Source of the DNA: an uncultured Chloroflexia bacterium | Lineage (GTDB): Bacteria; Chloroflexota; Anaerolineae; Anaerolineales; Anaerolineaceae | Reading direction: 5' to 3' | Assembly (NCBI GenBank): GCA_963704755.1 | Contig: OY969938.1 | Span: forward strand, 150,001 to 182,000 | DNA length: 32,000 nt | In this document: positions 3,603 through 30,540 of the stretch, piece after piece | How positions within the stretch are numbered: position 1 is the first letter of the stretch | Layout of the letters: every line of letters starts with the position of its first letter | Program-made: the position numbers and the translations under genes | Notes under the pieces: model-generated | The model's database searches: none | The model's input: the letters and a program-made list of their open reading frames with translations, nothing else | What the model was told of the DNA's origin: nothing

Positions 3603-4601
3603 ATGAGCAAATCACGAGTGTTTAAATTTTCAATTGTGTTGATGGCGCTGGTCATTCTGGCCGGATGCGCCGCTCCGACTGCCGAACCGACCAGCATGCC
3701 TGCGCCGACGACTGCTCCTGCAGCAGCCGCGACCGAGATGCCAACTGTTGCAGAAGCAACCATGGCGGAATCATCCGCAACGGAAGCAATGGCTACCGAA
3801 GCTCCGACTGCCGCCGCAACTGAAGCTACAACGATGCCTCAATCCGGTACGTGCCTTGGCTCGGCGGATACGGCCGTTGTGGACCTGAATTGCAAAGACA
3901 TCACGATCGCTGTGGAAAACGCTTACCTGCCCTTTAACTACATCGTGTTGTCCACCGGCCAACCGGGTGGTTGGGACTATGATACCTGGGACGAAATTTG
4001 CACCCGGCTGCACTGTACACCTGACTTTGTCGAATCGGCCTGGGACGGCTTGATCCAGGCAGTTTCCAATGGCCAATACATGGTCGGCGCGGATGGAATC
4101 ACCAATACACCGGACCGGGCAGAAATTGTTGATTTCTCCATGGGCTATATGAACATTAATCAACGTCTGTTGGTTCGCAAAGGGGAGACCCGCTTCACCA
4201 GTATCGAGGATTTCGCTTCCCAACCCAGTCTGGTCATGGGCACCCAGGTGAGCACAACCAATTACGAAACGGCAACCAAATATCTATCCGAAGATCGGAT
4301 CAAAGCGTTTGATACGTTTGCATTTGCAATTCAAGCGTTGATCACAGGTGACGTAGACGCTGTCATCATCGACGAAACCGCTGGTATGGGTTACCAGGGT
4401 GAAAACGCTGATCAGCTCGAATTGATTGGACCCTCTATTTCCAGTGATGAGCTCGGGTTTATCTATCCAAAAGGTAGCGATTTGGTTGACCCGGTTAACC
4501 AGGCGCTGCAATCTATGAAGGATGATGGAACCCTGGATAAACTGAATACGAAGTACTTTGGGCCTGATTTCACCCTGACCTCTTCTGAAATTCAAGGATA
4601 A
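3603..4601 (+). CDS. polar amino-acid ABC transporter substrate-binding lipoprotein (SBP family 3)
   Basis: Lipoprotein signal with lipobox LAGC, an Ala/Thr/Pro/Glu-rich linker, then a family-3 SBP-like domain. RBS GGAGAGAGAG lies before ATG 3603. The gene is followed by permease and ATPase genes. Confidence 0.9.
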
Positions 4602-4680
4602 GTAATTTTTACAAAAGGAATGAATTCCTGGCTGCTTGAGAAATCCAGGCAGCCAGGGCGAACTTGATGAGGTAAAGGGT

Positions 4681-5565: not shown

Positions 5566-6301
5566 TAATGACATCATCCAGGCGATAAATTTGCGCAAAC
5601 AATTTGGCAAGCTGAATGCGCTAGATGGAGTTAGCCTGTCCGTCAAGCGTGGTCAGGTGGTCGTAATCATCGGCCCAAGCGGATCTGGCAAATCAACTTT
5701 CCTGCGCTGCATCAACCAGTTAGAGACCCCCACCAGCGGGGAGGTGTGGGTGGATAATAAGAAAGTGACCGGAAACGGCAAAGAGCTCAATTTGATGCGC
5801 TCTGAAATTGGGATGGTTTTCCAGCATTTCAACCTTTATCCGCATCTTTCCGTTTTGGATAACGTCACCCTGGCTCAACGGATCGTCAAGAAGGTTCCCA
5901 AGGCCAAAGCGGAAGAGATTGCCATGAAGCACCTGGATCGAGTAGGCATTGCGGATAAAGCGCTGGGTTACCCGGGACAGTTGTCCGGCGGCCAGCAGCA
6001 GCGCGTGGCGATTGCCCGTGCGCTGGCGCAAAACCCAAAGATCATGCTTTTTGACGAGCCGACCAGCGCCCTCGATCCGGAAATGATCAAGGAGGTGCTG
6101 GAGGTAATGTTGGACCTGGCCAAAGAAGGGATCACCATGGTGGTCGTCACTCACGAGATGGGCTTTGCCAAAGCCGCGGCTGATGAAGTCGTGTTTATGG
6201 ACTTCGGAAAAATCGTCGAAAGAGCTACACCGGCTGAATTCTTTGCTGCGCCAAAACATGAACGTACTCAGAATTTTCTGAGTCAGATTTTGAGTCATTA
6301 A
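5552..6301 (+). CDS. amino-acid ABC transporter ATP-binding protein (GlnQ/HisP-like)
   Basis: Walker [10 protein letters not shown], signature LSGGQQQRV, Walker [13 protein letters not shown]-loop VTHEM. It overlaps the permease stop by 14 nt. Confidence 0.95.
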
Positions 6302-6470: not shown

Positions 6471-7785
6471 ATGAAGATTTACGAAAGAATCAAGGAGCAA
6501 GTGCCATCCTGGCATAAACGGATAAATTCTCTGCGCAAGGAATACAGCGATTTCGTGGTGGGGAAAGTCACGATTGACCAGATTTTAAATGGTATCCGCG
6601 GGGTTCAAATCAGTATCAGTGATATTTCCTACGTCGATCCATACGAAGGGATCAGGCTGCGTGGTTATACTATCCCGGAGATCATCCAAAAATTGCCCAA
6701 GGCCGAAGGCTCGAAACAACCTCTGGCGGGCGGCCTGTACTACTTATTACTGACGGGAGATTTGCCGACCGACACAGATGCCTGGGACGTGGAGTTCTGA
6801 ATGGGCCAGGCGCAGCACTTTGCCGGACCAGGTTTATCGGGTTCTGGAAGGTATGCCGATCGATACCCACCCGATGACCTTGCTGTCGCAGGCAATCATG
6901 GCGATGCAGCCCGATTCGTTGTTTGCCCGGGCTTACCAGGACGGGCTCAGCCGGCCGGAATATTGGGATTATTTCCTGGAAGACAGCCTCAACCTGACCG
7001 CAAAACTGCCTTCGATTGCCGCCTATATTTATTGCCGTAAATACCGCGGCGGAAACGTCCGCAAACCGGACCCAAACATGGATTGGAGCGCGAACTTTGC
7101 TCAAATGATCGGTATGGGCGATAACGAAGAATACAAAGAACTCGTCCGGTTGTACTTCGTCTTACACTCCGACCACGAAGGCGCTAATGTTAGCGCGCAC
7201 ACATCCCACCTGGTTTGTTCGGCCCTGTCCGATATCTACCTTTCCACGGCGGCGGCCATGAACGGCCTGGCCGGCCCGCTGCACGGGTTGGCCAACCAGG
7301 AGTGTATCCGCTGGCTGATCGGCGTACATAGCCATTTCGGCCACTTACCGACAAACGAGGAATTGGAGCAATTCATCCGCGATCAACTTGCCAGGGGAAT
7401 GGTTATCCCCGGGTACGGGCATGCCGTTTTGCGGGTCACCGATCCGCGCTTCCTGGCCCAGATGGACTTCGCCGAGAAATACCTGCCAGATGACGAGTTA
7501 TTCAAATTGGTCAAACAGGTGTACGAGATTGCACCCAGGGTTTTAGGCGAGAACAAGAAAATCAAGAACCCACGCCCGAACGTGGATGCAATTAACGGTT
7601 GTTTGCAGTACCATTACGGTGTCAATGAAACCGAGTTTTATACTGTTCTCTTTGGTATCAGTCGTATCCTTGGCTTGACTTCTCACGCGATTTGGGCCAG
7701 GGCACTGGAAAAACCAATCGAGCGACCCAAATCTTTGACGACTCAAATGTTGGAAGAAATGGTTGCCGGCGAAAAGGGAGACTAG
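6471..7785 (+). pseudogene. citrate synthase (eukaryote/mitochondrial-like type), interrupted by a +1 frameshift near 6784-6797
   Basis: ORFs 6471..6800 and 6778..7785 are colinear halves of one citrate synthase. Motifs HSDHEGANVSAHT, PGYGHAVLRVTDPR and NVDAINGC are present. The span is 1315 nt = 3n+1. Confidence 0.85.
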
Positions 7786-7823: not shown

Positions 7824-9575
7824 ATGGACAAGACAACCTACCAGTTATACAGTGAAAAAGTCGTTATCCGCTTACGCGGAAAAATTTGCGAAACATCCGA
7901 AGAACTGCTTTCGAGTGATTTATTCCGCAATGTCTTAATTGGTTATATTCGTGAACTCGACAAGCGTCAGTCGCGTTATTTAAATATTTTCCCCGAACGG
8001 AAATTTGGCGGAAAAGAGATCGACCAGTTGATTTCCACTTTCCATTTCCTGGTTAAACTTCCCAGCGACCTGGTGGTGAAAGTTTACGAGGATGCGGGAA
8101 AATTCTTGCAAGACCGAACCCTGTTGTATGATTTTGTCGAGCAACTCTATAATTACTGGCGCAGGCTGCACCGGGTTGTGATCAACGATACGACTTTGGA
8201 CCAGATGGATAAACGGCCCTACCGGACGTTTGGTGAGACGGTCGAGAAATTGATGCATGTCGTCCGCAGCACCTACCGGGACATCCAGGAAAACATCAGC
8301 GGCAACCACCCGCGCGTTTATCGCCAGGTCAGCGCTGGCGCTGAGATCGGCGCGATTGCCCTGCCGACCCCCATCCCTTATCCTAACGGCGATTATTCCT
8401 TTTTACGGGATGTTTCGGTCTTGCGCCAGATCCTGATTTACCCGCCTATGATTTTCAACTCCCCGAACAACAAGCGCAAGGGGATGTTCGAGCGGATCGA
8501 TTTCAACCCGATCAAGGGTGTGAAACTGAACCCCGAGGAATGGTTGTGCTATCCCGCCCGGGTAGGCGACCTGGTGATTATGGTTTATTTCTCGATCAAG
8601 TATTTCGAGCTGGGTTTTTCGCTGTGTAATTTATTCGAGATGGCCGAGAGCGATCAAATCACCCGCCAGCCGGATGCGATCTACCTGTTTGGCCTGGACG
8701 AGATTCCCGGTATCGGTGAGGGCCAGAACCAGACCGTCTTTTACGATGATCAAGAGCACGATATCATGGTCGGTGTGGTGCCGTTCAAGGATGAGTTTGG
8801 CTATTTCGGCTACCTGAAGAAAATGATCTTGACCCTGCACAACATCATCATGATGAAAAAGGGCCGCATGCCCTTCCATGGCGCCTATTTCCACATCCGC
8901 ATGCGCAGCGGCAAGGAATCCAACGTCCTGGTGTTAGGCGACAGCGGCGCGGGCAAATCGGAGACCCTGGAGGCCATGCGCCAGATAGCCGGGGACGCCG
9001 TGGAGGAGTTGATCGTCATTGCGGACGATATGGGCTCGCTTTCTATCGATGAACAGGGCCGGGTGATCGGCTACGGCACGGAGACCGGTGCATTCGTCCG
9101 CCTGGATGATTTGCAATCCGGCTATGCCTTGGGCCAAATCGATCGTACCATCATCATGAACCCGGACCAGGTCAATGCCCGGGTCGTGATCCCAATCACC
9201 AAGTTTGAGGATGTGACCCGTGGCTATCCGGTGGACCTGGTCATGTATGCCAACAATTACGATGTGGTCGACGAAAATTCTCCGGTGATCTCCCGTTTCG
9301 ATACGGCAGAGGATGCCATCGACATTTTCCGCTCCGGCGCGGTGATGAGTAAAGGCACGACCAATACCAAAGGTTTGGTGCATACTTATTTCGCCAATAT
9401 TTTTGGGCCGCCCCAGTACCAGGAGCTGCACGATAAAATTTCCCAAAAATTCTTCGACCAGTTCTTTGTCAACGGAATTTTTGTGGGTGAAATGCGCACG
9501 CAGTTGGGCGTACCGGGTATGGAACGAGAAGGCCCGGTGAATTCAGCCCATGCCCTGCTGGACCTTATTCAATAG
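7824..9575 (+). CDS. divergent PEP-carboxykinase/HprK-superfamily P-loop protein, function unknown
   Basis: ORF 7692..9575. The start is likely ATG 7824 (AGGTG 5 nt upstream) or ATG 7800. P-loop GDSGAGKSE, ADDMG, FGYFGYLKK, PFHGAYF and NSPNNKRKG are colinear with the PEPCK-ATP motifs. Confidence 0.7.
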   Translation: MDKTTYQLYSEKVVIRLRGKICETSEELLSSDLFRNVLIGYIRELDKRQSRYLNIFPERKFGGKEIDQLISTFHFLVKLPSDLVVKVYEDAGKFLQDRTLLYDFVEQLYNYWRRLHRVVINDTTLDQMDKRPYRTFGETVEKLMHVVRSTYRDIQENISGNHPRVYRQVSAGAEIGAIALPTPIPYPNGDYSFLRDVSVLRQILIYPPMIFNSPNNKRKGMFERIDFNPIKGVKLNPEEWLCYPARVGDLVIMVYFSIKYFELGFSLCNLFEMAESDQITRQPDAIYLFGLDEIPGIGEGQNQTVFYDDQEHDIMVGVVPFKDEFGYFGYLKKMILTLHNIIMMKKGRMPFHGAYFHIRMRSGKESNVLVLGDSGAGKSETLEAMRQIAGDAVEELIVIADDMGSLSIDEQGRVIGYGTETGAFVRLDDLQSGYALGQIDRTIIMNPDQVNARVVIPITKFEDVTRGYPVDLVMYANNYDVVDENSPVISRFDTAEDAIDIFRSGAVMSKGTTNTKGLVHTYFANIFGPPQYQELHDKISQKFFDQFFVNGIFVGEMRTQLGVPGMEREGPVNSAHALLDLIQ

Positions 9576-9598
9576 GAAGGTTCTTAGCAGAAGCGGTT

Positions 9599-15333: not shown

Positions 15334-17748
15334 TCAGCCTAAAATTACCTCGACAGGGTGCACCTGACCGTCGGCAAAATAAGGCACCAGGTTGCCGGCC
15401 AGCGGGCTGCCATCCACACTCAAACTGGCGACGTTGTGGTTGACATGCTGCGGATTTTTGACCGAAATGACATAGTCTGCGCCGCGGATCTTACGCCGGA
15501 CCTCGAAGCCGTCCCAGGCGGCCGGGATACAAGGATCAATCCGCAGGCCTGGATAGGCCGGGCGAATACCCAGAATCCACTGCGTGCCGGCCTGGTACAT
15601 CCAGGATGCAGTACCGGATAACCAGCTATTACGGGCCAGGCCGAACTGGGGGTGTTCATTGGCCAGGATGTTTTGCGGATAAACGTAAGGCTCGCATTCG
15701 TATTCTTCGATGCAGTCATTTTTGCCGGCCGGGTTGATCTGGGCGTAATAAGTGAAGGCACGGTCGCCGTGACCGAGCAGAGTCTCGGCGATGATCACCC
15801 AGGGATTGACGTGCAGGAATATCCCCCCGTTTTCTTTGGCGCCAGGCGGATAGGTGGTCAGGCCGCCTTTTTGCGGGTCGTAGCCGTTGAAGCTGGGCGC
15901 ACTGACTTTGATGCCATTGCGCGTGTTCAATTTCTCGAAAACGGCTTCCAGGGCTGCTGCCGCGCGATCTGGGGCGGCAAATCCGGAAAGGACCGGCCAG
16001 GCCTGGGCGTAGGCGTAAATCTGGCCAAACTCATTCTGGCTGGAGCCCAGCGGGACACCATTCTCATCATAATAGGCGCGGTACCAGTTACCGTCCCAGG
16101 CGGAGGCTGCAACTCGTTCGTTCATTCGGTTGTAAGCCGCCTGAAATTGGGATTCGTTTTCCCGGTCGCCGGTAAATTCACATAATTCGATCAGTTCCTG
16201 CAGGGCACGGCCATACAGGTTGGCGGTCAGCAAGGATTCGGCCCCGGCGGCTAAATTAACCGAGTCGTTCCAGTCGGCATAACCCAAAAGAGGCAAGCCG
16301 TGTGCACCCAGGTCAGACCCGGTGAAGCGTACTCCCCGGCAGAGATGATCGAAAACACTGGCGCTTTCCAACGCCGTGTCGTCTTTATTCTTTTCGTAAT
16401 AAGGGATGCTCCACTTAAGAAAATCGAAATCGCCGGTCTCTTTTAGGTAGGCACAAACCGCCAGAATGGCCCACAGGTGGTCGTCGCTGTAATACTGGGG
16501 ATGGTCGGGCTGTTCGACCGCGTCGCCGGTTTCGGCGACCATGGTCAGTGGGTTGAGCTGGTGGTAAGCCGAGCCGTTGCAGCGCTGGACGGAGAGCAGC
16601 TTGACCAGCAATTCCCTGGCCGCGGCCGGTGCCGAAGAGAGCACCGCCATCACGTCCTGGGCACTGTCCCGGAAGCCAATTCCGCGTGAACCGTAACCGA
16701 GTTGGTAGAGCGAGAGGTACCTGGACCAGTTCAAGGTGGTGTAACACTGGCGCGGGGTAAAGACGTTCAGCATGCGGTCGAAATCGGCCGAGGGGGTGTG
16801 AGCCTGGTAGGTGTTCAGGTAGCGGTCCCAGAAGACAGCCTGATCGGCAATAGCTGCTTCCACCTGGCCGGGATCGCGGTATTTCTGTAGGGTCTCTTTG
16901 GCCTGTTCGAAGGAAGCGGATTGGCCTAAGAGGGTAATGACGCGGCGGAATTCCCCTGGTTTGAGTTTACCCAGGTGGTGCATCAAGGCGGCGATGTTGT
17001 CGCCGCGGTTGGCCTGGGTATTCGAAAGCTCAGGTTTAGCCAGGCTGGCGGGCTGGGCCCAATTTCCCAAGGGGTTGGCACCCAGAAAAATGTGGCGGTC
17101 GGTCTCGAAGGAGGCAGCCGGGAAGTTGGAGGTGAAATAATTGACGGCCGTGTCGCGGTGCATGAAAGCGTACTGTACCAGCGTTTTCAGGCCGGCCTGG
17201 TCTTCCGCCAGGCGGCTCTGCATGGTCTGGGGCACCCAATCGGCGTTGGTGAGCTGTTTCAGGGCGTCAAAATGGGTATATTCGACCACCGGGACTACAT
17301 CAATTTCCAGCGGCCCGGCGCTCAGGTTCTTGATGCGGATATCGCGGACTTCACATTCGGCATCCTGGGGCACAAAAATAGTGACCGAGCATTCGATACC
17401 GTTCATGCGGCTGGTGATGCGGCTGTATCCCAGGCCCACCCGGCATTCGAAGAAATCATAAGGCGTCAGGCAGGGGGTGTAAAAAGGTGAAAAAACGCGG
17501 TACCCGTCGGAAGTATGGATACGCAGGTAAAGGCCCTCGCCTTTGAAGTCGCTATCCGGTTGGATGGCGATATAGCGGGTGATTCAATTCAAGGCCGGGT
17601 CTTGCCGGCAGATCAGGGCTCCGCCGGTATGATCGACAAAACCGCCAAAGGCCAGTGTGCCGATGTAATTGATCCACTTGACCGGGGTATTCGGGTTGGT
17701 GATGACGTATTCCCGGCTTTGTTCATCGAAATAACCAAAGTTCATTAA
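15334..17748 (-). pseudogene. GH94 glycoside phosphorylase paralogue (chitobiose/cellobionate/cellobiose phosphorylase-like) with an in-frame TGA at codon 55
   Basis: ATG 17748 (RBS GGAGAAG) opens MNFGYFDEQSREYVITNPNTPVKWINY...ALN, then TGA (17586-17584). The same frame continues ITRYIAIQPD... into ORF 15334..17439. The whole protein is colinear with the upstream GH94 gene. Confidence 0.85.
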
Positions 17749-17830: not shown

Positions 17831-20275
17831 CTAGGCCACTTTTACGATTACCTGGATTTCTTTCTTGTCCGCTGCCGGAAGGGGAATAACGCTCCCTTCA
17901 ATGCGAGACCCATCGACGTACAGGCTAATATCGTTTCCAGGGCCTTCTCTTTGAACCTGAATGTTATAGCGTACGCCACGATACTCACGAACGGCGGTAA
18001 ACCCGTCCCAGGCCTGGGGCATCACCGGCGCAACCTGCAGGCCGTTCAAAGTGGGGTGGATGCCCAGGATCCATTGGGTTATGGCGACGTAATTCCAGGC
18101 CGCGGTGCCGGTCAGCCAGGAGTTCTTGGCTTCCCCGTGGGTGGGGGCATCTTTTCCGGCGATCATCTGGGCGTATACGTAGGGTTCACAGCGGTGAATT
18201 TCACTGATCTTCTCGCGTGCGGAGGGATTAATGCGGCTGTAGTAATCGAAGGCATTATTGCCGTTCCCGGCGCGGGTTTCGGCGATCATGACCCAGGGGT
18301 TGGCATGGCAAAAAATTCCTGCGTTTTCCTTGTACCCTGGCGGGTAGGTAGAAATTTCACCCAGGTTCAGGTGATAATGGCTGTAAGCCGGCTGCTGCAG
18401 GACAATCCCATGGGGGGTAGCCAGGCGTTCCTTGACCGAATCCAAGGCCTGCCTTGCATGGCCATTCTCCAGGCCGATACCGGCCATCACGCAAATACCC
18501 TGGGGCTCGATGAAGATCTGGCCTTCTGCGCAAGTATGAGAACCGACCGGGTTGCCAAAATCGTCATAAGCCCGTAAGAACCAGTTGCCATCCCAGCCCC
18601 ATTCGTATACCTTTTCGGCCATCTTTTTGGCCAGGGCGCGGTAGATTTCCTCATCGGCCGGCTTGGCAATCGCAGCAGCGATTTCGGCCAATTCATTGCT
18701 GGCCATCACAAACAAGCCGGCAATCAGTACCGATTCGGCGACTTTTCCATCTTTCCCGAGGGTCGTCTGGAAAGACTGGCCCGGGTTTTCGGAAAAGCAG
18801 TTGAGGTTCAGGCAGTCATTCCAGTCCGCCCGGCCAATCAAAGGCAAGCCGTGGGGGCCAAACCTTTCATGGATATGGCGAATACTGCTTTTCAGGTGAT
18901 CGTAGAGCGGCTGTTCGGTGCCGGGAATATTGTCGTAGGGAATGGTCACTTGCAGGATCGAAAAGTCCCCGGTTTCTTTGATATAAGCCGAAGTACTCAG
19001 CAGCAGCCAAAGCGGATCGTCGTTGAAATTCGAGCCAACATCGTTATTGCCCTGGCGGGTGAGCGGCTGGTATTGGTGATATGCTCCCCCGTCCAGCAAT
19101 TGGGTGGCGGCCAGGTCGAGGATGCGCTGTCTGGCTCGTTCCGGGACCATGTGCACGAACCCCAAAAGGTCCTGGTTCGAATCACGGAAGCCCATTCCAC
19201 GGCCAATCCCCAATTCGTAATAGGAAGCCGAACGCGACATATTGAAGGTGATCATACACTGGTAGGCGTTCCAGATATTGACCATTCGGTTGGTATGTTC
19301 GTCGGGGGTTTGGACCTGCAGGACAGACAGGAGTTCGTCCCAATAAGAATTTAGCGCCTGAAAGGCCTCGGTGACTTTTTCGGGCTGCAGAAATTGATGG
19401 ATGATGGGCAGGACATTCTTTTTATTGATACGTTGGCTGCCAGGGGGATCAAACTTGTCGTCAGGTTCGTTTTCCTGGTAGCCTAGCAGGAAGATAACCG
19501 TGCGCTCTTCACCGGGGGCCAGGCTGAATTGAACATTATGCGAGCCGATTGGCTGCCAACCGTGGGCGATCGAATTATGGGACAGGCCAACCTGGACGAC
19601 CTGTGGGGCTTCCAGGCTTGCGTAAGGCCCAACGAAACAATCACGCTGGGTATCAAACCCGGATAGGGGTTCTGAACAGGCAAAATACGCGAAATGATTG
19701 CGGCGTTCGCGGTATTCAGTCTTATGGTAAATAACACCATCCTCTACCTCGACTTCGCCGATACTGAGGTTGCGTTGGTAATTGGTGCTGTCGTCGAGCG
19801 CATCCCAGAGCGCAAATTCTATGAAGGAAAATAGGGAGAGATTGGCGGCTTTATCGCGCTGGTTGGCCAGGTGCAATTCCCATACTTCCAGGGTGTTGCC
19901 CAGGGGCACAAAATAGCGGATCGAGGCACGAATATCCCGGAAAGTCGATTCGATGGTCGTATAGCCCATGCCATGCCGGCAAACATATGCATCCAGTGGT
20001 TTACGGATGGGCTGCCAGGTCGGTGACCAAAATTCACCGGTATCGTTATCACGGATATAAACATAACGGCCGTTCGAATCAAGGGGAACGTTGTTATAAC
20101 GATAGCGGGTAAGCCGGCGTAAGCGGGCGTCTTTATAGAATGAATACCCCCCAGCAGTATTGGAAATCAAACCGAAATAATCTTCACTGCCCAGGTAATT
20201 GATCCAGGGCAGAGGTGTATCGGGACGTTCGATAATGTACTCGCGGTGTTCATCGTCAAAATGGCCGTAACGCAT
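17831..20275 (-). CDS. GH94 cellobiose phosphorylase-like glycoside phosphorylase
   Basis: ORF 17831..20308. The start is ATG 20275 ([29 protein letters not shown]), with GAGG upstream. Length 814 aa, typical of cellobiose phosphorylases. Confidence 0.9.
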
Positions 20276-20684
20276 AATGCCTCGTAATTTATAGTATTTG
20301 AAAAACAACTACGCTAGACTGCTAACCGTAATCGCCGCGGAGGTTGGATCAAAGATACGGCTTGCAATGCGGTGTATATGAGCACCAAAGACCAGCGCTC
20401 TTTCCCGGTAGCTCTCTTGATGGCTGGCTTCCCCGCCAAGACTCCGATATTTTACCCGATAAATTTTGGGAACGATAACAGGGTTTTGGGCGGCCATAAT
20501 TCTCGCGATCCTCTCGCCGTCAAACCCTTACCCGCCAGCGAGTTTACCCCACCCCAGCCTGTTTTTAGCCTTTGCCGCACAGACCGGATTGCCATTTCTT
20601 AGCCTTCTCCCTCCAATCTCGAAGAAATGAACCGCTATTACTTTATAGAAACCCCTTCCATTTTCTTGTACTGATCAGATACCC

Positions 20685-21046: not shown

Positions 21047-24000
21047 CTATCCGAGCGAGACCGGTTGGGGCGCCGCCGGTAGCCAAACTTGCATCGTGGT
21101 CCCTTTTCCCAAGGCGGACGAGACGTTGATGTGCCCTTCGTGCTGCTCGATGATGGATTTGACGATGAACAATCCCACTCCGGTGCCCTGGATCTCCTCC
21201 TCGATCGCGTTGCTGGCGCGATAAAAGCGTTGGAACAGGTTCGGCAAATCTTCCGGGGGGATGCCGATGCCGGTATCGCTCACCTCGATCTGGATGCCCT
21301 GTTCGGCGAATTTGGCACTCAACGTGACGGCGCCATTTTCTGGCGTGAACTTAATCGCGTTGTTCAACAGGTTAACAAAGACCTGCTCAAGTGAAGATGA
21401 ATCGGCCATCAAGGCGGGTAAGTCGTCTGGAATGTTTTCTGAAACAAGGATCGAGCGGGCGGTGGCTAAAGACCTTACAGTGTCGAGAGAATTATTGAGG
21501 GCAGTATGGATATCTATGACCTGCTTGTTGAGTTGGTAGCGCCCACTTTCCAGGCGGCCTACCGAGAGCAGTTTTTCGATCAAGGTTCTTTCGCGCATCA
21601 ATTCAGAATTGAGGATTTGCCAGAAATGGTCGATCTCGGTTTGCTCGCCACCCTCGTGAATCAAATCGGTCATCATCATGATGGTGGTCAACGGGGTTCG
21701 CAGGTCGTGGGCAGCCCGGTTGATGAAATCCGACTTCATCTGTTCCAGCCTGGCACGTTCGCTGATATCCCGAATAATCGCCAGGACCTCATCTTCGCCG
21801 CAGACCACCAGGCGGGCTTCGAAAGAATGAAGGCCATCTTTTGCCGGGTTTTCAAACAAAAACAACTGGACTTCTTTGGTAGCAAAAGCCAGTGCGATTT
21901 TCTGTAGGGCTTCATCGGCGGATTTTGGTGATAGGATCGAGCGGATGTTGAATCCAACCAGGTAACTGTCGGGGTTGACGCTGTTGTCGGCCGTCACGCG
22001 ACCATCGCGGGTGAAACGATAAATCCGGTCGGGGATGGCATTGAGCATGGCCTTATTGCGACCTTCACTCTGGCGCAGGGACCGTTCAGCTTCGGATCGC
22101 TGGATATCGGTGCCCAGAATGTCGGCTGCGATTTTCAGGCTTTCTATTTCGCTGACCGTCCAGTTCCGCGCAGTTAGGCAGTCCTCGAAGCCAATCCAGC
22201 CCCACCAGTTCATATCGATGAATATGGGAATCAGGGCTATTGAAAGTGCACCCCGCCTGGCAAAAACCTTGCCCTCATTGGCGGATAAAGTAGCCGTTGA
22301 CCCATAAATACAGCGGCCTTCGGATAACTCGACGACCAGGTGATTTAAATCGGATTCCAGGTAGCGCAGCAGTTCTGGTGGATCGGTCTGGTCGGATTCA
22401 GTGCCGGCCGCATTTTTCCAAGAAAAACGACGTTTACCGACCAACCCGTTGTGATCGATTTGATTTTGATAAAGATAGACCTGGCTGCAATGGGTCGCCC
22501 TGGCTAAATCCCCGAGGACCCCCTGGATGCAATCTTCCCAAAAAGGCGTATTGAGAAATTGGGATGAGGCGAAGGCAATCGCATCCAGGATTTCATCCCT
22601 GCGGCGTAAATTTTCTTCAGTTTGGCGGCTTTCGGTGACATCGCGTGTAATCGTGCTCGCCATGATACCCCTGGCCGTTTGAATCGGCGATATAACTACC
22701 TGGAGGTTGCGCAGCTCTCCGTTGGGGCGCTGAACGTTTAATTCAAGGTAATTGCTTTCGGTGGAATATTTTCCTTCCAGGGCAGATTCATAGAATTCTT
22801 TGGTCAGGTGGAAGTCTTCGGCATTATGGGTGGTAGCGGAAGGGAGTACTTTTTCGATATCCCAGGCCTTCAAGCCGATTACTTTTTCGCGGGGGATATC
22901 GGTAATCCGTTCTTCGCCCTGGTTCCACTCGATGATCACACCTTGTTCATCGTTTAAGATGATGCCATCAAGTGAATGTTCAATCACGTTACGCAGTTTT
23001 TGTTCGTTATCTTTGGCTTCTGAAAAGATTATCCCTCTTTCGATAGCCATAGAAACATGTTGGCTTACTTCGGTTAAATATACGCAGGTCATCTTCAGCG
23101 AGAGGTTTGTTCTCGTCTGATTCGACATCCAGAACACCAATGATTTGGCCTCGGTCGAGGAGCGGGACAGCGATTTCAGAAACAACACCCGGAATAGCGC
23201 TGAGCGTGGCGGCATACTCAGGCGACATGGGTGCAATGAACGGCTGCCCGCTGCGGAACACTTTGCCGACCACACCGGTGTCGGTGGGATGGACTTCGGG
23301 CTTGTGAGAGACCCCAACCTCGCTCTGCAATTCGAGCCGGTCCCCCTTGAGGAAATACAGACAGACCGATTTATACCCGTATACATTCGCGACGGCATTC
23401 ACAATCGTGTTGAATACGGCTTCCAGTTCCAATTCGCGGGCCAATGAGGAACGGACTTCGATTATCAGGCCGAGTTCGCGTGCCTGAGCCAGCGAAGCGT
23501 GGAACAACTCTTTATAGCGCTGTTCGCTTTCTCGCAGGTTGTCTTCGGCATTTTTCTGTTCGGTTACATCCTCGATGACCCCATCGACATAATCGATTTC
23601 TCCATCTGCCTTGAGTGTGACCCGGCCGGTATTGCGCAGCCACAAGCGTTGGCCTGCCCGGTTGTGAAATGGGATCACCGCCGAAGACGTAAGGCCTTCT
23701 TTTTTCCAGCGGTTCGTCAAATTGAAGCGATCTTGCGGATTTTCGTAAAGATCGAAAGCATTGACATTTTGGATGATGTATTCCGGACTGGCATAGCCCA
23801 GAATGTTTGCGAGCGCCTGATTGAGGTGTAAAAAAGTACCGTCTTCTTTGGAACGGTAGACGCCTACAGGCAATTGATCGGTGAAGGTTTTATATTTCTT
23901 TTCGCTTTCGTGTAAAGCCTTTTCGGTTTTCTGTCTCTCCAGGAATTGACCGATCTGGCTGCCCACAGAATTAAATAGCCCATCCAAATCCGACTGTTGG

Positions 24001-25457
24001 GGATGATCGCTGCTAAAGAAGGCCATGACCCCCAGGGTATTGCCGACAAAAATGATGGGAACGACCAGACCGACTTTCCAGCCATGCGTAAGGGCAAAAT
24101 CGCAAATCACACAATCCGCGTCATAATCATCGAGAGACAGCCACTGAGTATCCTGGTTTTGCCATACCGTACCCAAAATGCCTTCGCAAGGCTTGATGCC
24201 ATCGATAGAGGGCGCGGACTCGGGGAAACTATTCGCAGGGGAAGCGAACCACTGCTGTTGTAAAAACAACTGTTCTGAAACAGACTCTACTTCCCATAAG
24301 CCACCCCAGGCGAAACCAATATTTGTGCATATAATTTTTAATATGGATTGGGCGGCCTCGTTTAATTCCGTTACACCTACCAATGTGCGCGAAACATCGA
24401 ATTGGAGCTGCAGCCGGCGTTCGATTTGGCGATGGTGAGTCACATCGTGGAGTAAAACGAGTTGGCCGATTTGTTCTTTGCGCGGATTTACCAGAGGAGA
24501 TCGCAGCATTTCATATTCGCGGTCATTGTGAAAAACAATAGCCGGTGGCGAAATTTCTCCATCATGGGTGACCGGATGGCTTCCTTGCCCGTATTCTCTA
24601 CCGAGTATGTCTGATAGATAGATTTTCTTTTTGAAAGAAGCGGGTAAGTTGAACGCTTCCTGAGCGGATGGATTGGCGTCGATCACAGAACCATTTTCAT
24701 CGGTGACAAACATGAGCTCGGTCATATTCGAGATGGCGATTTCGTGCGCCATGGGGCTGATTTCCAAGATGCGCAGATGAATTACTCCCCAGGCCATGAC
24801 CACACCGGAAACTGCAAAGGCAAATGGAGTCAGGTCCAGGCCGCGGATGGGTGAGATACCGAGAATATAAGCCCCGTTTCCCAGCCAGGGGACCAGTGCT
24901 GAGGCAAACAAGGCAAAACTTTCAGGGCCTTTGAAGTTGTAACGCTTGATCAGTGAGAAAGTCAATACCGAACTGGCGAAAAGCAGTGCATAGGCATAGG
25001 TAATATGGACCCAAAACCAGGGACCGTGGTCGATGAACAAAAGCAATGCACCCGAGGATTGGCCCAACCAAACCTTTTCCCAAACCAGGCCATGAAGCTC
25101 GTTGGTCCAGGCCAGCAGCATGACAATGGCCGGTTCCAGCCAAAGCAGGCGGCGTAAAGGTCTTTTTAGTGCATCCTTGTTGCCCGAGTATTCCAAGATA
25201 AACAGGAACCAGGCCACCGGCACGATCGCGATACCGATGTATTCGAATTTAGCCCAGAACACCTTGGCGGCCAGGGTCTGGCTGACCAACTCAAAACCAT
25301 ATCCAAGACACCAGATCCCAATGGCGATGAACTGGGTGATCATGGCTTTTGAACCAGGAATGCGCCTCCTGGACCGTCCGAGATAAATGCCCAGGGTGAT
25401 GGACAGGATAACCGAAATTAATAACAGAAAGAAATAGTCGTTAATGGATTGAAACAT
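21047..25457 (-). pseudogene. multidomain sensor histidine kinase (7TM N-terminus, alternating PAS/GAF domains, HisKA, HATPase_c), interrupted by a +1 frameshift near 23072-23081
   Basis: ORFs 23007..25457 and 21047..23398 overlap by 392 nt. A GAF domain begun in the first ORF (VLDVESDENKPLAEDDLRIF) is completed in the second (TEVSQHVSMAIERG). H-box AAHDLRTPL, N-box LLNNAIKFT, DTGIGI and GTGVGL are present. The span is 4411 nt = 3n+1. Confidence 0.85.
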
Positions 25458-25463
25458 TTTACG

Positions 25464-25850
25464 TCAAGAGGGGTGGTAAGTCCGGCGCAGTACGGCCTGG
25501 ACACGGGAAATCAATTCCTGGCGGTCGAAAGGTTTGGTGATGTAGTCGTCGCTGCCGAGCTCAAGGCCGAAATTTTTGTCCCCCTGGGCTGATCGGGCCG
25601 TCAAAAAAATAAAGGGAATCGCTGCGGTCTTGGTGTTCTGGGTCAATTTTCGGCGCAAATCAAAGCCATTCGGCGGCGGCATCATCACGTCGCTGATAAT
25701 CAGGTCCGGCGTGTTTTCAACCGCGGCCTGATAGCCTTCTGCGCCGTTACTGGCCGTGATCACCCGATAGCCGGCCCGGGTAATAATCAACTTTAAACCG
25801 TAAAGGATGTTCGCTTCGTCGTCGATCAGTAAAATAAGTGGAACTTCCAT
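25464..25850 (-). CDS. single-domain response regulator (CheY-like receiver)
   Basis: 128 aa. Acidic pocket LIDDE, phospho-acceptor context LIISDVMMP and conserved Lys in YITKPF. It ends 7 nt upstream of the kinase start. Confidence 0.9.
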   Translation of the reverse strand: MEVPLILLIDDEANILYGLKLIITRAGYRVITASNGAEGYQAAVENTPDLIISDVMMPPPNGFDLRRKLTQNTKTAAIPFIFLTARSAQGDKNFGLELGSDDYITKPFDRQELISRVQAVLRRTYHPS

Positions 25851-26040
25851 GGCCCCTTCTTTGCCTTGAATTTGGTAGCGATTCTCCTGAAAGCGAAAGC
25901 CTGTTCAGAAAAGCTATGCTTGAGGCTTGTCGATCGTTCGAAGAGAATCATAAATCGTCATTTTTGAGTATAAATACTCGGATATGGATTCCCATAAATT
26001 CAGAGTAAAAAAGGGTTAATTAGCGATAAAAAACGAATAC

Positions 26041-26906
26041 CCGAGGACCCGCGCTCTCAAAAAAAAGAGACCGCTTTACGCAGTCTCTTTTTTTTAGCTA
26101 GTGGCGGGAGCGACGGGGTTCGAATTACAATCCCCTCAATGGGGACCCGCGATCTCAAATAAAAAAAGAGACCGCTTTACGCAGTCTCTTTTTTTTAGCT
26201 AGTGGCGGGAGCGACGGGGTTCGAATTACAATCCCCTCAATGGGGACCCGCGATCTCAAATAAAAAAAGAGACCGCTTTACGCAGTCTCTTTTTTTAGCT
26301 AGTGGCAGGAGCGACGGGGTTCGAATTACAATCCCCTCAATGGGGACCCGCGATCTCAAATAATAAAAAGAGACCGCTTACGCAGTCTCTTTTTTTAGCT
26401 AGTGGCGGGAGCGACGGGGTTCGAATTACAATCCCCTCAATGGGGACCCGCGATCTCAAATAATAAAAAGAGACCGCTTACGCAGTCTCTTTTTTTTAGC
26501 TAGTGGCGGGAGCGACGGGGTTCGAATTACAATCCCCTCAATGGGGACCCGCGATCTCAAATAATAAAAAGAGACCGCTTACGCAGTCTCTTTTTTTAGC
26601 TAGTGGCGGGAGCGACGGGGTTCGAATTACAATCCCCTCAATGGGGACCCGCGATCTCAAATAATAAAAAGAGACCGCTTACGCAGTCTCTTTTTTTTAG
26701 CTAGTGGCGGGAGCGACGGGGTTCGAATTACAATCCCCTCAATGGGGACCCGCGATCTCAAATAATAAAAAGAGACCGCTTACGCAGTCTCTTTTTTTTA
26801 GCTAGTGGCGGGAGCGACGGGGTTCGAATTACAATCCCCTCAATTGGGACCCGCGCTCTCAAATAAAAAAAAGAGACCGCTTTACGCAGTCTCTTTTTTT
26901 AGCTAG
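26041..26906 (-). repeat. tandem array of 8 full units (100/101 bp) plus one degenerate unit, each a tRNA-Asp 3' fragment with a 21-nt T-loop insertion plus a terminator
   Basis: TGGCGGGAGCGACGGGGTTCGAA starts at 26102, 26203, 26303 (one SNP), 26403, 26504, 26604, 26705 and 26806, and again at 26907 (the genuine tRNA). A partial unit lies at ~26041-26101. The units are nearly identical. Confidence 0.95.
26865..26900 (-). terminator. intrinsic (bidirectional) terminator immediately 3' of tRNA-Asp; the same module recurs in every repeat unit
   Basis: An 8-bp stem GAGACCGC/GCAGTCTC (one G-U pair) with a 5-nt loop, flanked by an A-run and a T-run. Confidence 0.75.
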
Positions 26907-26982
26907 TGGCGGGAGCGACGGGGTTCGAACCCGCGATCTCGGCCTTGACAGGGCCGCATGTTAGCCACTACACCACGCCCCC
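26907..26982 (-). tRNA. tRNA-Asp (anticodon GTC), CCA encoded
   Basis: The minus strand reads GGGGGCGTGGTGTAGTGGCTAACATGCGGCCCTGTCAAGGCCGAGATCGCGGGTTCGAACCCCGTCGCTCCCGCCA. It has a 7-bp acceptor stem, anticodon stem CGGCC/GGCCG with loop CTGTCAA, and T-loop TTCGAAC. Length 76 nt. Confidence 0.93.
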
Positions 26983-26995
26983 ACGAACGAGCCAA

Positions 26996-27024
26996 ATAAT
27001 ATCATGGTCTTAGAAAACCGTCAA
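26996..27024 (-). promoter_or_regulatory. promoter of tRNA-Asp (TTGACG-17 nt-TATTAT)
   Basis: Reverse complement of 27019-27024 is TTGACG and of 26996-27001 is TATTAT, with a 17-nt spacer. The predicted TSS is ~7 nt before the tRNA 5' end. Confidence 0.6.
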
Positions 27025-27045: not shown

Positions 27046-27501
27046 CTAATTGTCTTGTTGAATCCACTGGTCCAAACTGCGATCCCAGGGGTAAACTTCA
27101 CTTTCCGGGAACCAGAGATTGATCTCCAAAGCAGCGTTTTCCGGGCTGTCCGAGGCATGGGTGAGGTTTTTCCCAACCACCAGGCCGAAATCGTGGCGGA
27201 TCGTACCGGGAGCGGCTTCGGTGGGGCGGGTAGCGCCCATCGTCTGGCGAACGGCGGCAATTGCCTGGGGGCCTTCCCAGACCATGGCCATGACCGGAGC
27301 AGAGGTGATGTAATTGATCAATCCATCGTAAAAAGGTTTTCCCTGATGAACTTTATAGTGCTCTTCTGCCAGTGTGCGGGGAACCTGCATGAATTTAGCC
27401 GCGACCATTTTCAATCCGCGCCGTTCCAGCCGGGCGATGATCTCTCCAATTAATCCGCGTTGAACTGCATCTGGCTTAGCCAGAACAAAAGTACGTTCCA
27501 C
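27046..27501 (-). CDS. ndk: nucleoside-diphosphate kinase
   Basis: ORF 27046..27513. GTG 27501 is preferred (GGAGGA 4-5 nt upstream) and gives the N-terminus (M)ERTFVLAKPDAV. Active-site His context NLTHASDS is present. Confidence 0.93.
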   Translation of the reverse strand: MERTFVLAKPDAVQRGLIGEIIARLERRGLKMVAAKFMQVPRTLAEEHYKVHQGKPFYDGLINYITSAPVMAMVWEGPQAIAAVRQTMGATRPTEAAPGTIRHDFGLVVGKNLTHASDSPENAALEINLWFPESEVYPWDRSLDQWIQQDN

Positions 27502-27584: not shown

Positions 27585-30540
27585 TTAGCGTAACAATTCT
27601 TCGGCTTTCGTATAGGCGTCAAGGGCTTCCTGAAGACGGTTACTGCGCATATAGGCGTCTCCAAGCGCCTGCCAGATGGCAATATCGATTGGGTAGCGGT
27701 AAAGGGCATCCCGTAAGTCGTGGATGGTTTCTTCGAGATTGGCCCCATGCTGGATCAGCAGGTTGTAATTCTCCAGGGCCCGCTCGATATTGTAGGCTTC
27801 CAATGCGGATTGGGCATTCTGGAGCAGCTCCGGATCGCTGGTCGTAACCGGTTCAACCGCCGTGGCTTCCTCAAGGATAGGTTCGACTACCGGTTGGTGG
27901 GATGTAGGCGTTTCGAATTCGGGGCGCCATTCAGAGGGGGTATTTTCCAGCGGTTCCTCTGGTTTTTCTTCTCCCAGTTTTTCCAACCAATCGGAAACCG
28001 ATTCTGGGCCTAATTCAGGGGAGATGCCGTTATCGCTGCTCTCTTCCTGGATGGCCAGATCCTTTAGCCAGTCCGGGACCGATTCGTCTTCGGGTGCCAC
28101 GGGCGGAATAAATTCGTCTTCCTCTTCCAGTTCTTGTTCAACGATTTGATCGTTGAGGATGGCCTCTGGCTCGTCAGGGATGTCTTCGATTTCAGGTTCG
28201 AGGGTTGTGTCGTCTTCGATCAGGCCGGGCTCAGGTTCCGCTGGCTCGATTTCATCTGCAACTGGCTCGGGTTCTTGCTCTTCCGGTTCGATTTCGACGG
28301 GGGTGAGCTCTGATTCGGCGGTTGTGGATGCGCCTGTTACTTCCGGTTCGGGGGTTTCAGCTTCGGTTTCTGAGAAGGCTTGCCCTTCAGGAAGATTTTC
28401 CTGAACGTTTTCTGCCTGCAATTCTTTGAGCCAATCGGGCAACTGATCTTCAAATGGTTCGCTGATCAATTCGACCGGCGGCTCTTCCTCTTCAGCGGCG
28501 GCTTTGATCCAATCCGGCAGGTCGATTGTTTCGTCTTCGACCGGTTCTTCCTGAGGAGAGCTTTCAACCTCATTGGCGACTGAACTGCTGCCGGTTTCCT
28601 CACCTGTCAAAGATTCCGTATCGATGAGATCGAATGGCGGTTCAATTTCGTCCTCTTGCGCGACGAATGCCGATTCGGAATCCGGGTTTTGCCGTTCAAC
28701 CTCTTCTTCCGGCTCATTTTGGTCCAGGGCCGCGGATAAAATGTCGTTGAATTCAGGCTGAGCCTCGTTCGTATCTGCTGCGGGTTCAGGATTTGGATTT
28801 TCGTTTTCGTCTTTTGTTTCGGCTTGTTCCAACCCTTTAAGCCACTCGGGAAGTTCTTCAGTTCGCTCTTCGGGTGGAGTTAATAATGTAGCTTCGTCAG
28901 CTCCCTGGGCCGCGGCCAGAGATTCCAACCAGGCCATGGCCTCGTCCATGTTAGCGCCCGAGGAAAGGTCCTCGGATTCGGCCGGAGGTGTTTCTTCTGC
29001 CTGTACCGGCTGTGGATTCTCTGCGGCCAAACCGGGTTGTTTTTCCTTTATCTCGCCGGATTCATCCGCCAGCTTTTGGGCAGGTTCTTCGTCGACGATC
29101 CCGGCCAGCCAATCCGGCAGCTCGCTGCCATCCACGGGGATATCTTCATCCGAAAAGGATAAAGCGGCCGTTTCCACCGGGTGTATGGTTGGAACATCTG
29201 CATTCACAGGCTCTTCCGGCTCAATTACTTTGGAAGGTTCGGAAAAGTCTTCTGTTGAAGGGATTTCCGTGGGAGAGAATTCGGAAGGCTGCTCATTTTC
29301 CAGGTCTAACTTTTGAGTTTGGCCGGGTAAAATTTTATCGAGCCATGCGACGTCATTTTCGCCGGAGGTTTGCTCGGGTGCATCCTCTTCAGGCGCCATG
29401 CCAGACAGCCATTCCGGGAGCTCGGCAGGTTGAATTTCTTCCGGGTTCTCAGCCGGCTCGGTCGTTTCATTCAGGTTGTAGCCAGCCTCTGCCTCCAGGG
29501 AGACATGATCGTTGGCATTCCAGCCGGCTTCTTTCATCCAATCCGGTACTACATCTTCGCCAATATCGGGTAAAGGTTTGGTCTCTTTCGGGGTGGAACT
29601 CAACGGCCTGCACGGGAGAAGTATTACCGGTTGCAGTGGGTGTTGTCTCACCTGATTCGGCCTGCGGCTTGATCGACGAGAACCAATCAGGCAGGGTCTC
29701 GCCTTCCTGTTTCCAATCTACACCCAGGTTTTGGGCCCATTCCGGGGCTTTGCCGGTTTCTTCACCCTCTTCGTACTCCAACTTGTCCAGAACGACGGCA
29801 TTTTCGGGCACTTCCAGGCTGTTCGTTCCGTTTTCAGGCACGTGTTCCAGATAAGGATCCATTGCATAAACACGTTTGCGGTAGTTCTCGGCGTCATCGG
29901 CACGGGATGTGCCCGGCAATATATCCGCCAGGATGCGATTGGCCTCGAAGCAATAGGGGAGTTCGCCGACCAAACGGCTGCATACCTCTGTCGAGGCGAT
30001 AGTCTGCCCGGAAAGGTAATACATCCGGGCCAGGATGACTTCCAGATCCAGGCGTTGGGGATTTTCGTTGAGGGCTACCCGAATTTCAGCAATGGCCTGT
30101 TGAAATAGCTCGCCACGAGCGTACATTCGGACCAACGCCCCGCGGGTAAGGCGGATCTTGGCTGGTTCGACCCCGTCGCGACGGCCATATAATCGCCGCA
30201 ATTCATCCTGGACGGCGACATTCGAGGGCTGGGCTTCGAAAGCCCGTTCCATGTGCCAGATGGCGGCATCCAGGTTGCCTTCATCTTCACGAATGATGCT
30301 CAATCCAATTTGGGAGATAAAATCGTCCGGTACGGCCGAAAGTACTCTTTGGAGGACATCGGACGCTTCGGCATAGCGTTGGGTTTCAAGGAATGCCTTG
30401 CCCAACAACCGGTAGGTATCAATGTGTTTGGGGAAATATTTGAGAATATGGCGACAATGAATGATCGCCCGATTGGCCTGGCCACGGTCGATCATTGCCT
30501 CAATTTCCCGGTTGTAAGCGCGGAGCGAGATTTTGCTCAT
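27585..30540 (-). pseudogene. TPR protein with a long acidic [LV]P[DE]W[LIM] repeat region, interrupted by a +1 frameshift near 29590
   Basis: ORFs 29467..30540 and 27585..29651 overlap by 185 nt. The PDW/PEW repeat motif occurs in both ORFs, with TPR-like helices at both ends. The span is 2956 nt = 3n+1. Confidence 0.75.

Follow-up and report, generated by a model that had tools for sequence, protein, structure and literature searches.

In a 32-kb window from an uncultured Anaerolineaceae bacterium (32,000 nucleotides, positions 150,001 to 182,000 of contig OY969938.1; coordinates below count from the first letter of this window), a tRNA-Asp(GTC) gene on the minus strand has eight units of 100/101 bp lined up behind it, with a decayed stub at the far end. 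Each unit repeats the 3' part of the tRNA, split by an insert predicted to fold into a hairpin, together with a trailer and a terminator. Of the tRNA-Asp tail repeats found, which recur in Anaerolineae, this array is the largest; the module lies directly behind tRNA-Asp in at least 10 further Anaerolineae/Chloroflexota assemblies. We think it reasonably probable that the array is a tandem duplication of tail and terminator behind tRNA-Asp, that recombination homogenizes its copies, and that it forms a stack of terminators whose read-through would yield RNAs like the rtT RNA of Escherichia coli.

Sequence relationships within and between loci (designated by L numbers) bear most directly on the origin of the array. 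Over the 40 nt past the tRNA tail (trailer and terminator), units are 95 to 100% identical to the sequence behind the tRNA of their own locus, compared with 47 to 75% identity between loci. Where CCA is absent from the tRNA, as at L012 and in a second structural form of the module (class B, described below), it is absent from the units too. L015 displays a gradient in which the tRNA and unit 1 carry TCGATACCCGT, unit 2 is a hybrid, and units 3 to 5 carry TCGAACCCCGT. Copy number is polymorphic between L019 (four units) and L020 (five units), whose Ndk proteins are identical, and the copy farthest from the tRNA has decayed at five loci (the window stub, L010, L017, unit 2 of L012, and unit 3 of L003). 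From these patterns we infer unequal crossing-over and gene conversion.

We postulate that a segment comprising the tRNA 3' part, its trailer, and its intrinsic terminator gave rise to tandem duplicates immediately downstream of the gene. Exchange between identity blocks of ~60 bp, by unequal crossing-over and gene conversion, could then have made the array grow, shrink, and homogenize. The tRNA gene, being under selection, would act as the master copy, and each exchange would regenerate an intact tRNA. The rise to eight copies appears to be recent and was probably neutral, proceeding in two sub-blocks (units 1 to 5 and units 6 to 8); the two sub-blocks seen in the window would fit stepwise block expansion.

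The first-pass annotation of this DNA had proposed an att-site scar amplified by unequal crossing-over. Its amplification half agrees with the concerted evolution, copy-number polymorphism, and decayed edge copies described above. The scar half, in which a tyrosine-integrase element targeting either the T-loop or the acceptor junction of tRNA-Asp left attR-like fragments that were amplified later, seems to us improbable. Integration is the usual source of prokaryotic tRNA fragments (PMC9897764). Synteny is also broken immediately downstream of tRNA-Asp at every locus. The split points of the units, 53/54 (5' edge of the T-loop) and 65/66 (T-stem/acceptor junction), reportedly fall within sublocations that integrases target. 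However, a Pfam scan of 19 window open reading frames (ORFs) found no integrase, transposase, cas gene, or reverse transcriptase in the 32-kb window, as the first-pass annotation had stated for integrases; the window holds no foreign block, and there is no integrase, transposase, or foreign block beside the arrays at the five further loci scanned. There the downstream ORFs encode DAO, NmrA, an F420H2-dependent quinone reductase family protein, a P-type ATPase, an MFS transporter, and one product without a Pfam hit. The repeat copies contain the local trailer and terminator (95 to 100% identity), which is not expected of an attP core; the units abut the intact gene; and the unit sequence beside the T-loop is AU-rich rather than resembling a T-stem-like core site. 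Searches of IMG/VR returned 0 matches for the unit core and 0 for the tRNA tail 21-mer, plasmid records returned none, and phage records returned a single 37-bp terminator-like match. Like attL/attR pairs, the array duplicates the tRNA 3' part with breakpoints at the T-loop and acceptor junctions; unlike them, it has no integrase or intervening element, its copies include trailer and terminator, and these stand head to tail and are homogenized with the gene.

A lone copy of the acceptor tail, ATCGTCGCTCCCGC, was found ~170 nt downstream of tRNA-Asp (4559-4632) in L023/L024, near a DUF772 transposase-like gene and with no hairpin or terminator copy. Its appearance is closer to that of a classical insertion scar than to that of a tail repeat.

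Anatomy and assembly of the array

ARAGORN identified the tRNA-Asp gene as the sole tRNA in the window, and Rfam reported RF00005 with no second family, even at E <= 10. Neither program detected a cloverleaf in the units, in keeping with the earlier statement that one tRNA-Asp is present and that no unit is a tRNA. Tandem Repeats Finder (TRF) delimited the repeat at 26062-26929 (period 101, 8.6 copies, 98% matches, score 1630), a span that reaches into the 3' end of the tRNA. On the minus strand, units start at 26860, 26759, 26658, 26558, 26457, 26357, 26257, and 26156, and the stub starts at 26058. The features of the locus, in order of transcription, are as follows.

26996..27024, minus: tRNA-Asp promoter, sigma-70-type (TTGACG, 17 nt, (TG)ATATTAT), consensus matches 10/12
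26907..26982, minus: intact tRNA-Asp(GTC), CCA encoded (ARAGORN; Rfam RF00005, 63.7 bits)
26861..26906, minus: stretch directly behind the tRNA, with trailer CTAGCT, A7, predicted terminator hairpin GAGACTGCG-TAAA-GCGGTCTC, and T8 ATTT
26760..26860, minus: unit 1, with variants GAGAGCG and CCCAATTGAGGGG
26659..26759, minus: unit 2, predicted fold of -36.4 kcal/mol (z = -4.1, chiefly from the terminator)
26559..26658, minus: unit 3
26458..26558, minus: unit 4
26358..26457, minus: unit 5, the last in the sub-block with loop TAAG and tail T5ATTATTT
26258..26357, minus: unit 6, with the CTCCTGCCA variant, the first in the sub-block with loop TAAAG
26157..26257, minus: unit 7
26059..26156, minus: unit 8, tail T8, directly continuous with the stub; Logan contig L001 begins within its terminator
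26028..26058, minus: decayed ninth copy (stub), GAGAGCGCGGGTCC TCGGGTATTCG T6
26727..26747, minus: representative 21-nt insert CCCCATTGAGGGGATTGTAAT, with predicted hairpin (U)CCCC-AUUGA-GGGG(A) and AU-rich linker (8 found, 0 expected)
26828-26848, 26626-26646, 26526-26546, 26425-26445, 26325-26345, 26225-26245, and 26124-26144, minus: remaining insert copies

The unit starts, the TRF result, and the insert count all bear out the five-part anatomy given in the first-pass annotation. Each unit begins with GAGATCGCGGGT, equal to tRNA positions 43-54, and continues with the 21-nt insert, which is not present in the tRNA and has seven exact copies and one with a single mismatch. Then follow TCGAACCCCGTCGCTCCCGCCA, equal to positions 55-76 with CCA included (exact in seven of the eight units, with one mismatch in unit 6), CTAGCT with an A-run, and finally the terminator hairpin with its T-run. 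The split point is ambiguous by a single T and can be placed at 53/54 or 54/55. The stub opens with GAGAGCGCGGGTCCTCGGGTATTCGTTTTTT at 26058 and has GAGAGCG in common with unit 1.

The trailer and terminator behind tRNA-Asp are the presumed template for the 3' part of each unit. Every unit has the G+C-rich stem-loop and U-run of an intrinsic terminator; five units pass the terminator scan, and the others differ in loop/T-run layout only. The terminators had been described as identical to that of the tRNA, to which they are indeed a close match, but two sub-blocks can be told apart. Units 6 to 8 share loop GCGTAAAGC and T7-8(ATTT) with the tRNA's own terminator, while units 1 to 5 have loop GCGTAAGC and tail T5ATTATTT.

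Mechanical ORFs of 33 to 53 amino acids cross the units, so the claim that the array holds no ORF is literally incorrect; nevertheless, these ORFs are without a ribosome-binding site and cannot hold their frame in relatives, because loop and linker lengths differ there. One very basic ORF per unit (~34 amino acids, MRSRVPIEGIVIRTPSLPPLAKKKRLRKRSLFII, 26057-26862, minus) starts with TTG and lacks a ribosome-binding site. It brings to mind the protamine-like tpr ORF in the tyrT repeat of E. coli and is likely spurious. A coding reading of the units was rejected, as ORF look-ups returned no record and ribosome-binding sites are lacking. Two other known repeat types were also rejected. For a clustered regularly interspaced short palindromic repeat (CRISPR) array, the units run head to tail with no unique spacer, and there are no cas domains in the window. 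For ToxI-like type III toxin-antitoxin RNA repeats, the downstream gene encodes a receiver-domain protein (PF00072), and downstream genes vary per locus.

Eight is the number of units as assembled in the window. That the array is an artifact, in which long-read misassembly inflated a single duplicated unit, is in our judgment very improbable. The window assembly does seem to contain indel errors: the TPR protein, a single ORF of 1080 to 1180 amino acids in relatives, is divided here between two overlapping frames (29467-30540 and 27585-29651, minus) with a junction near 29555-29599, reflecting either an assembly indel error or a pseudogene. Part of the unit-to-unit differences are homopolymer lengths, and since the window carries at least one frameshift relative to the orthologue, the A7/A8 differences may be sequencing noise. 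Against misassembly, the non-homopolymer variants among units follow an ordered two-block pattern, and two independent Logan short-read contigs from the same organism end exactly at the two array edges. A break at repeat edges is the expected behavior of de Bruijn assembly. Furthermore, arrays of 2 to 5 units occur in six other assemblies, one of whose scaffolds is gapped inside the array. The larger arrays are in apparently long-read assemblies (judged by contig and isolate naming); counts from apparently short-read assemblies, which show one unit or a gap, are lower bounds.

Recurrence of the module in related genomes

Relatives were found by scanning metagenome contigs for two tRNA-Asp tails 50 to 80 nt apart, by scanning GTDB species genomes for the unit core, and by look-ups around Ndk relatives. 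By its Ndk homologues, the window belongs to Anaerolineae (Chloroflexota). The strict pattern GATCGCGGGT N10-40 TCGAACCCCGTCGCTCCCGCCA had no match in genome or metagenome contigs because the unit 5' part has diverged in relatives; relaxed patterns worked. Two structural classes emerged. Class A units, found at L008/L009/L016, L010/L018, L011, L012, L013, L015, and L017, consist of degenerate positions 42-53, usually (T)CGAGATCGGAGG, followed by the hairpin, an AU-rich linker, positions 54-76, and the local trailer and terminator. Their numbers are as follows.

L008/L009/L016, L011, and L018: 1 unit
L010: 1 unit and a stub
L012: 2 units, the second decayed
L017: 3 units and a stub
L013: at least 3 units, with a scaffold gap within the array
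L015: 5 units

Class B comprises the closest Ndk relatives of the window, L003 (81% identity) and L019/L020 (80%), with 3 to 5 copies at a period of ~75 bp. Its units run in the order trailer and terminator, TTCGAATCCCGT (positions 54-65), hairpin CCCC-AGAA/GGGA-GGGG, ATAGTA, and TCGCTCCCGC (positions 66-74). Thus, the hairpin sits before the T-loop in class A and between the T-stem and the acceptor strand in class B. Class A repeats are mostly found behind a CCA-encoding tRNA-Asp and class B repeats behind a CCA-less one. L004 has two tRNA-Asp paralogues 3 kb apart (6533-6608 and 9505-9578); the CCA-encoding one adjoins ndk, and the other lacks CCA.

Module contexts include ndk-linked, antiporter-linked, and GNAT-linked loci; L018 comes from a metagenome-assembled genome of a Levilinea sp. 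In the ~270 kb of locus DNA examined, a profile of the unit-specific part matched solely beside tRNA-Asp, which within that DNA speaks against an ordinary dispersed repeat, a concern raised in the first-pass annotation. A dispersed mobile hairpin was likewise rejected, as C4-N4-5-G4 is essentially confined to the units across all loci examined. Contig L014, from a Bradyrhizobium metagenome-assembled genome, was rejected as a carrier: it has an isolated TTCGAACCCCGTCGCTC at 3944-3975 in GC-rich intergenic DNA and no tRNA gene on the contig, and the fragment is a chance match or an unrelated tRNA remnant.

Two further observations concern repeats near other tRNAs or arrays. In L021, ~60 to 95 nt downstream of tRNA-Gly(CCC) (6026-6098, minus) and past its terminator, a C5-N10-G5 hairpin precedes ATTAC and TCAC; the segment that runs from T65 into the acceptor 3' strand of tRNA-Gly opens with the same four bases, TCAC. 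This stretch may be a decayed class-B-like unit on another tRNA. At L013 (7429-7854) and L017 (3195-3874), a second, unrelated tandem array comes straight after the tail repeats (174 bp x 2.5 and 241 bp x 2.8, respectively), with a terminator-like hairpin per unit by eye; terminator-bearing tandem repeats may be common in such genomes.

Gene order upstream of the array is conserved, and the genes downstream of tRNA-Asp or the array are different at every locus compared. The immediate neighbors in the window are the following.

27046..27501, minus: ndk (nucleoside-diphosphate kinase), upstream neighbor; the gene order rpoD, TPR gene, ndk is kept in relatives
25464..25850, minus: receiver-only response regulator (PF00072), first downstream gene, same strand; position not conserved in relatives

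Other window genes encode aconitase, an ABC transporter, citrate synthase, proline-pathway enzymes, 5-oxoprolinase subunits, two GH94 phosphorylases, PAS/GAF histidine kinases, and RpoD. The GH94 pair (cellobiose/chitobiose phosphorylase-type) is adjacent on the minus strand; the gene at 17831-20308 is complete, and that at 15334-17439 is without the start of the supersandwich domain. Overlapping ORFs at 21047-23398 and 23007-25457 (minus) together resemble a single large sensor kinase, with 7TM, PAS, and GAF domains in the first and PAS, HisKA, and HATPase domains in the second. This split may be a second frameshift like that in the TPR gene.

Hairpin, transcription, and possible function

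All 19 distinct unit variants, from both classes, contain a predicted helix of 4 to 9 bp with a core of 3 to 5 C:G pairs. Helices were tabulated from single-sequence folds, as MAFFT alignments fall out of register where loop lengths differ. The loops vary (AUUGA, UUC, UUAC, ACAG, AAGGG, ACAAG, AGGA, GGGA, AGAA, and AGAU), and the first pair outside the core is U:A in 10 variants, A:U in 5, G.U in 2, and U.G in 1. RNAalifold predicted the hairpin from 13 class A units, with double changes at two pairs; its one further helix, a 3-bp CGA/UCG pairing, we regard as spurious. That paired arms are kept while the loop changes suggests constraint on the hairpin, from few independent lineages. L013 and L017 share ATCGAGATCGGAGG at 14/14 positions; their adjacent antiporters are 65% identical, and their upstream intergenic DNA is unalignable save for the promoter. 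The retention of this motif amid diverged DNA argues for constraint on the unit-specific part. Some constraint probably acts on the basic module, meaning one or more units with the hairpin.

In the minimum-free-energy fold of a whole window unit, GGGG pairs instead with the downstream CCCC of the T-stem 3' strand, and a normal T-arm is absent from the predicted unit fold in either pairing. The T-stem 5' strand is not conserved in L015, L012, or L018. Presumably, the hairpin prevents unit RNAs from adopting a T-arm or tRNA-like fold. Two other pairings were considered and rejected. An antiterminator in which GGAGG pairs with the terminator's left arm could be drawn by eye for L013, L017, and L011 but not for the window, L015, L010, or L016. 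An acceptor-like minihelix of GAGA(G/T)CG and CGCTCCC has just 5 or 6 of 7 pairs and overlaps the T-stem.

In the tRNA-Asp promoter, TG directly precedes a -10 element read as TATTAT, and the TTGACG/-10 layout is also found upstream of tRNA-Asp in L004, L010, L012, L018, and L003/L019. As the first-pass annotation had noted, the window units have no consensus promoter of their own, and no -35/-10 pair is conserved in the other lineages; TATTAT does occur in window units 1 to 5, and its limitation to them led us to reject a promoter in each unit. Because conserved per-unit promoters are lacking and a strong predicted terminator precedes each unit, we conclude that the units could be transcribed only by read-through. 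The array would thus work as a stack of predicted terminators, and read-through could give rise to RNAs of ~100 nt, analogous to rtT RNA, each spanning from just behind one ...GCCA to the following one.

Two functions raised in the first-pass annotation, a multi-terminator insulator and a source of tRNA-3'-tail RNAs, are both possible on this architecture. Like tandem intrinsic terminators elsewhere, each unit has a strong predicted hairpin and U-run, and a series of nine would keep read-through out of the response-regulator/kinase genes. Ordinarily, tandem terminators consist of two or three hairpins unrelated to one another rather than of 100-bp repeats with gene fragments. Eight strong predicted terminators exceed the needs of insulation. 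Insulating a downstream operon is not a general explanation, as the downstream genes differ among loci and are convergent in L012, L015, and L017.

An alternative hypothesis, which we hold to be possible though rather unlikely, is that the units are functional small RNA (sRNA) genes or processed RNAs whose number matters, each releasing an RNA made of the hairpin and the tRNA-Asp 3' tail that would act as a decoy or sponge for a partner that recognizes the tRNA-Asp tail or as a regulator of tRNA-Asp maturation. Candidate partners would be a processing or modifying enzyme, a toxin, or an antisense partner. Lineages whose neutral DNA cannot be aligned still share the hairpin and motif TCGAGATCGGAGG, and the module is kept in all three of the gene contexts named above. 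The rtT RNA of the tyrT repeat is a real RNA product (PMC3318445; bioRxiv 10.1101/2024.07.17.603846). G.U pairs, possible in sense-strand RNA only, are frequent in the outer part of the helix, but they follow trivially from a GGG flank opposite an AU-rich linker. The absence of a conserved per-unit promoter, the strong predicted terminator ahead of every unit, the lack of any Rfam family match for the units, and a copy number ranging from 0 to 8 among relatives also speak against this hypothesis, and independent lineages are too few for a statistical covariation test.

Several observations weigh against the reading that we prefer, a recombination-homogenized duplication of tail and terminator. 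A single unit has been kept in several lineages despite flanking 60-bp direct repeats, and a like hairpin is found at two positions (53/54 and 65/66); both are hard to explain under pure neutrality. There are zero units at L004-L006 (behind both tRNA-Asp genes) and at L023/L024, and short-read assemblies may have collapsed copy numbers. The terminators look strong, with long stems and U5-U8, and it may be that transcription never reaches the distal units. Arms can stay complementary without selection through template-switch correction of quasi-palindromes, and it could be this process rather than selection that has kept the hairpin complementary.

Relation to known systems and significance

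The first-pass annotation could match the array to no described architecture, a statement that proved too strong. The 178-bp repeats of E. coli tyrT/tyrV (NC_000913; 3.1 copies, 95% matches, overlapping rttR and tpr) are a clear precedent, each carrying AATCCTTCCCCCACCACCA, the last 19 nt of tRNA-Tyr. The rtT RNA has been reported from one such repeat unit (PMC3318445; PMC2965389; bioRxiv 10.1101/2024.07.17.603846). In both systems, tandem direct repeats start inside the tRNA 3' end and continue downstream on the same strand, each repeat holds the 3'-terminal nucleotides of the tRNA including CCA, a partial copy closes the array, and a short basic ORF can be read in the unit. The systems differ in that the tRNA fragment here is 34 nt and split by a hairpin, compared with 19 nt in E. 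coli, that each unit here has an intrinsic terminator in up to eight copies, and that the module here is spread over a bacterial class in two structural forms. The units showed no homology to RtT RNA (RF00391) at the gathering threshold or at E <= 10. We propose that the tail repeats of Anaerolineae share the tyrT/tyrV architecture, and probably its mechanism of origin, without being homologous to it.

By-product RNAs of tRNA transcripts, such as 3'ETS-leuZ, act as sRNA sponges. By analogy, tRNA-processing enzymes could free the RNA that follows tRNA-Asp in the transcript, and this RNA could have its own function; the Anaerolineae units share no known homology with 3'ETS-leuZ, and the spacer here itself holds a copy of the tRNA tail. 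A bolder reading, which we consider rather unlikely at present, is that the hairpin-split tail represents a conserved and hitherto unrecognized class of structured noncoding RNA linked to tRNA genes in Anaerolineae, released from read-through transcripts by the tRNA 3'-end machinery and acting on tRNA-Asp biology, in which the same hairpin has arisen at two positions in two paralogues. Such an RNA would be, for example, a decoy for an enzyme or toxin that recognizes the T-loop or acceptor tail, or a regulator of maturation.

Our searches of the literature on Chloroflexi/Anaerolineae turned up no description of such repeats. The module is apparently undescribed; what is new about it is that a hairpin splits the tRNA part, that each unit has a terminator, and that it is widespread in Anaerolineae. 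A recent survey attributed prokaryotic tRNA fragments only to integration or CRISPR spacers (PMC9897764). Self-renewing tandem copies of tail and terminator, refreshed by a live gene, would be a third source of tRNA fragments that recurs across a bacterial class and would illustrate cleanly, in nature, how a tRNA locus undergoes concerted evolution. Such arrays are probably collapsed or broken in short-read assemblies, and annotators should beware of the pseudo-att sites that they present. If it is true that the hairpin marks a functional RNA, these repeats would constitute a new tRNA-linked RNA family and would revive the question of what role rtT-type repeats play.

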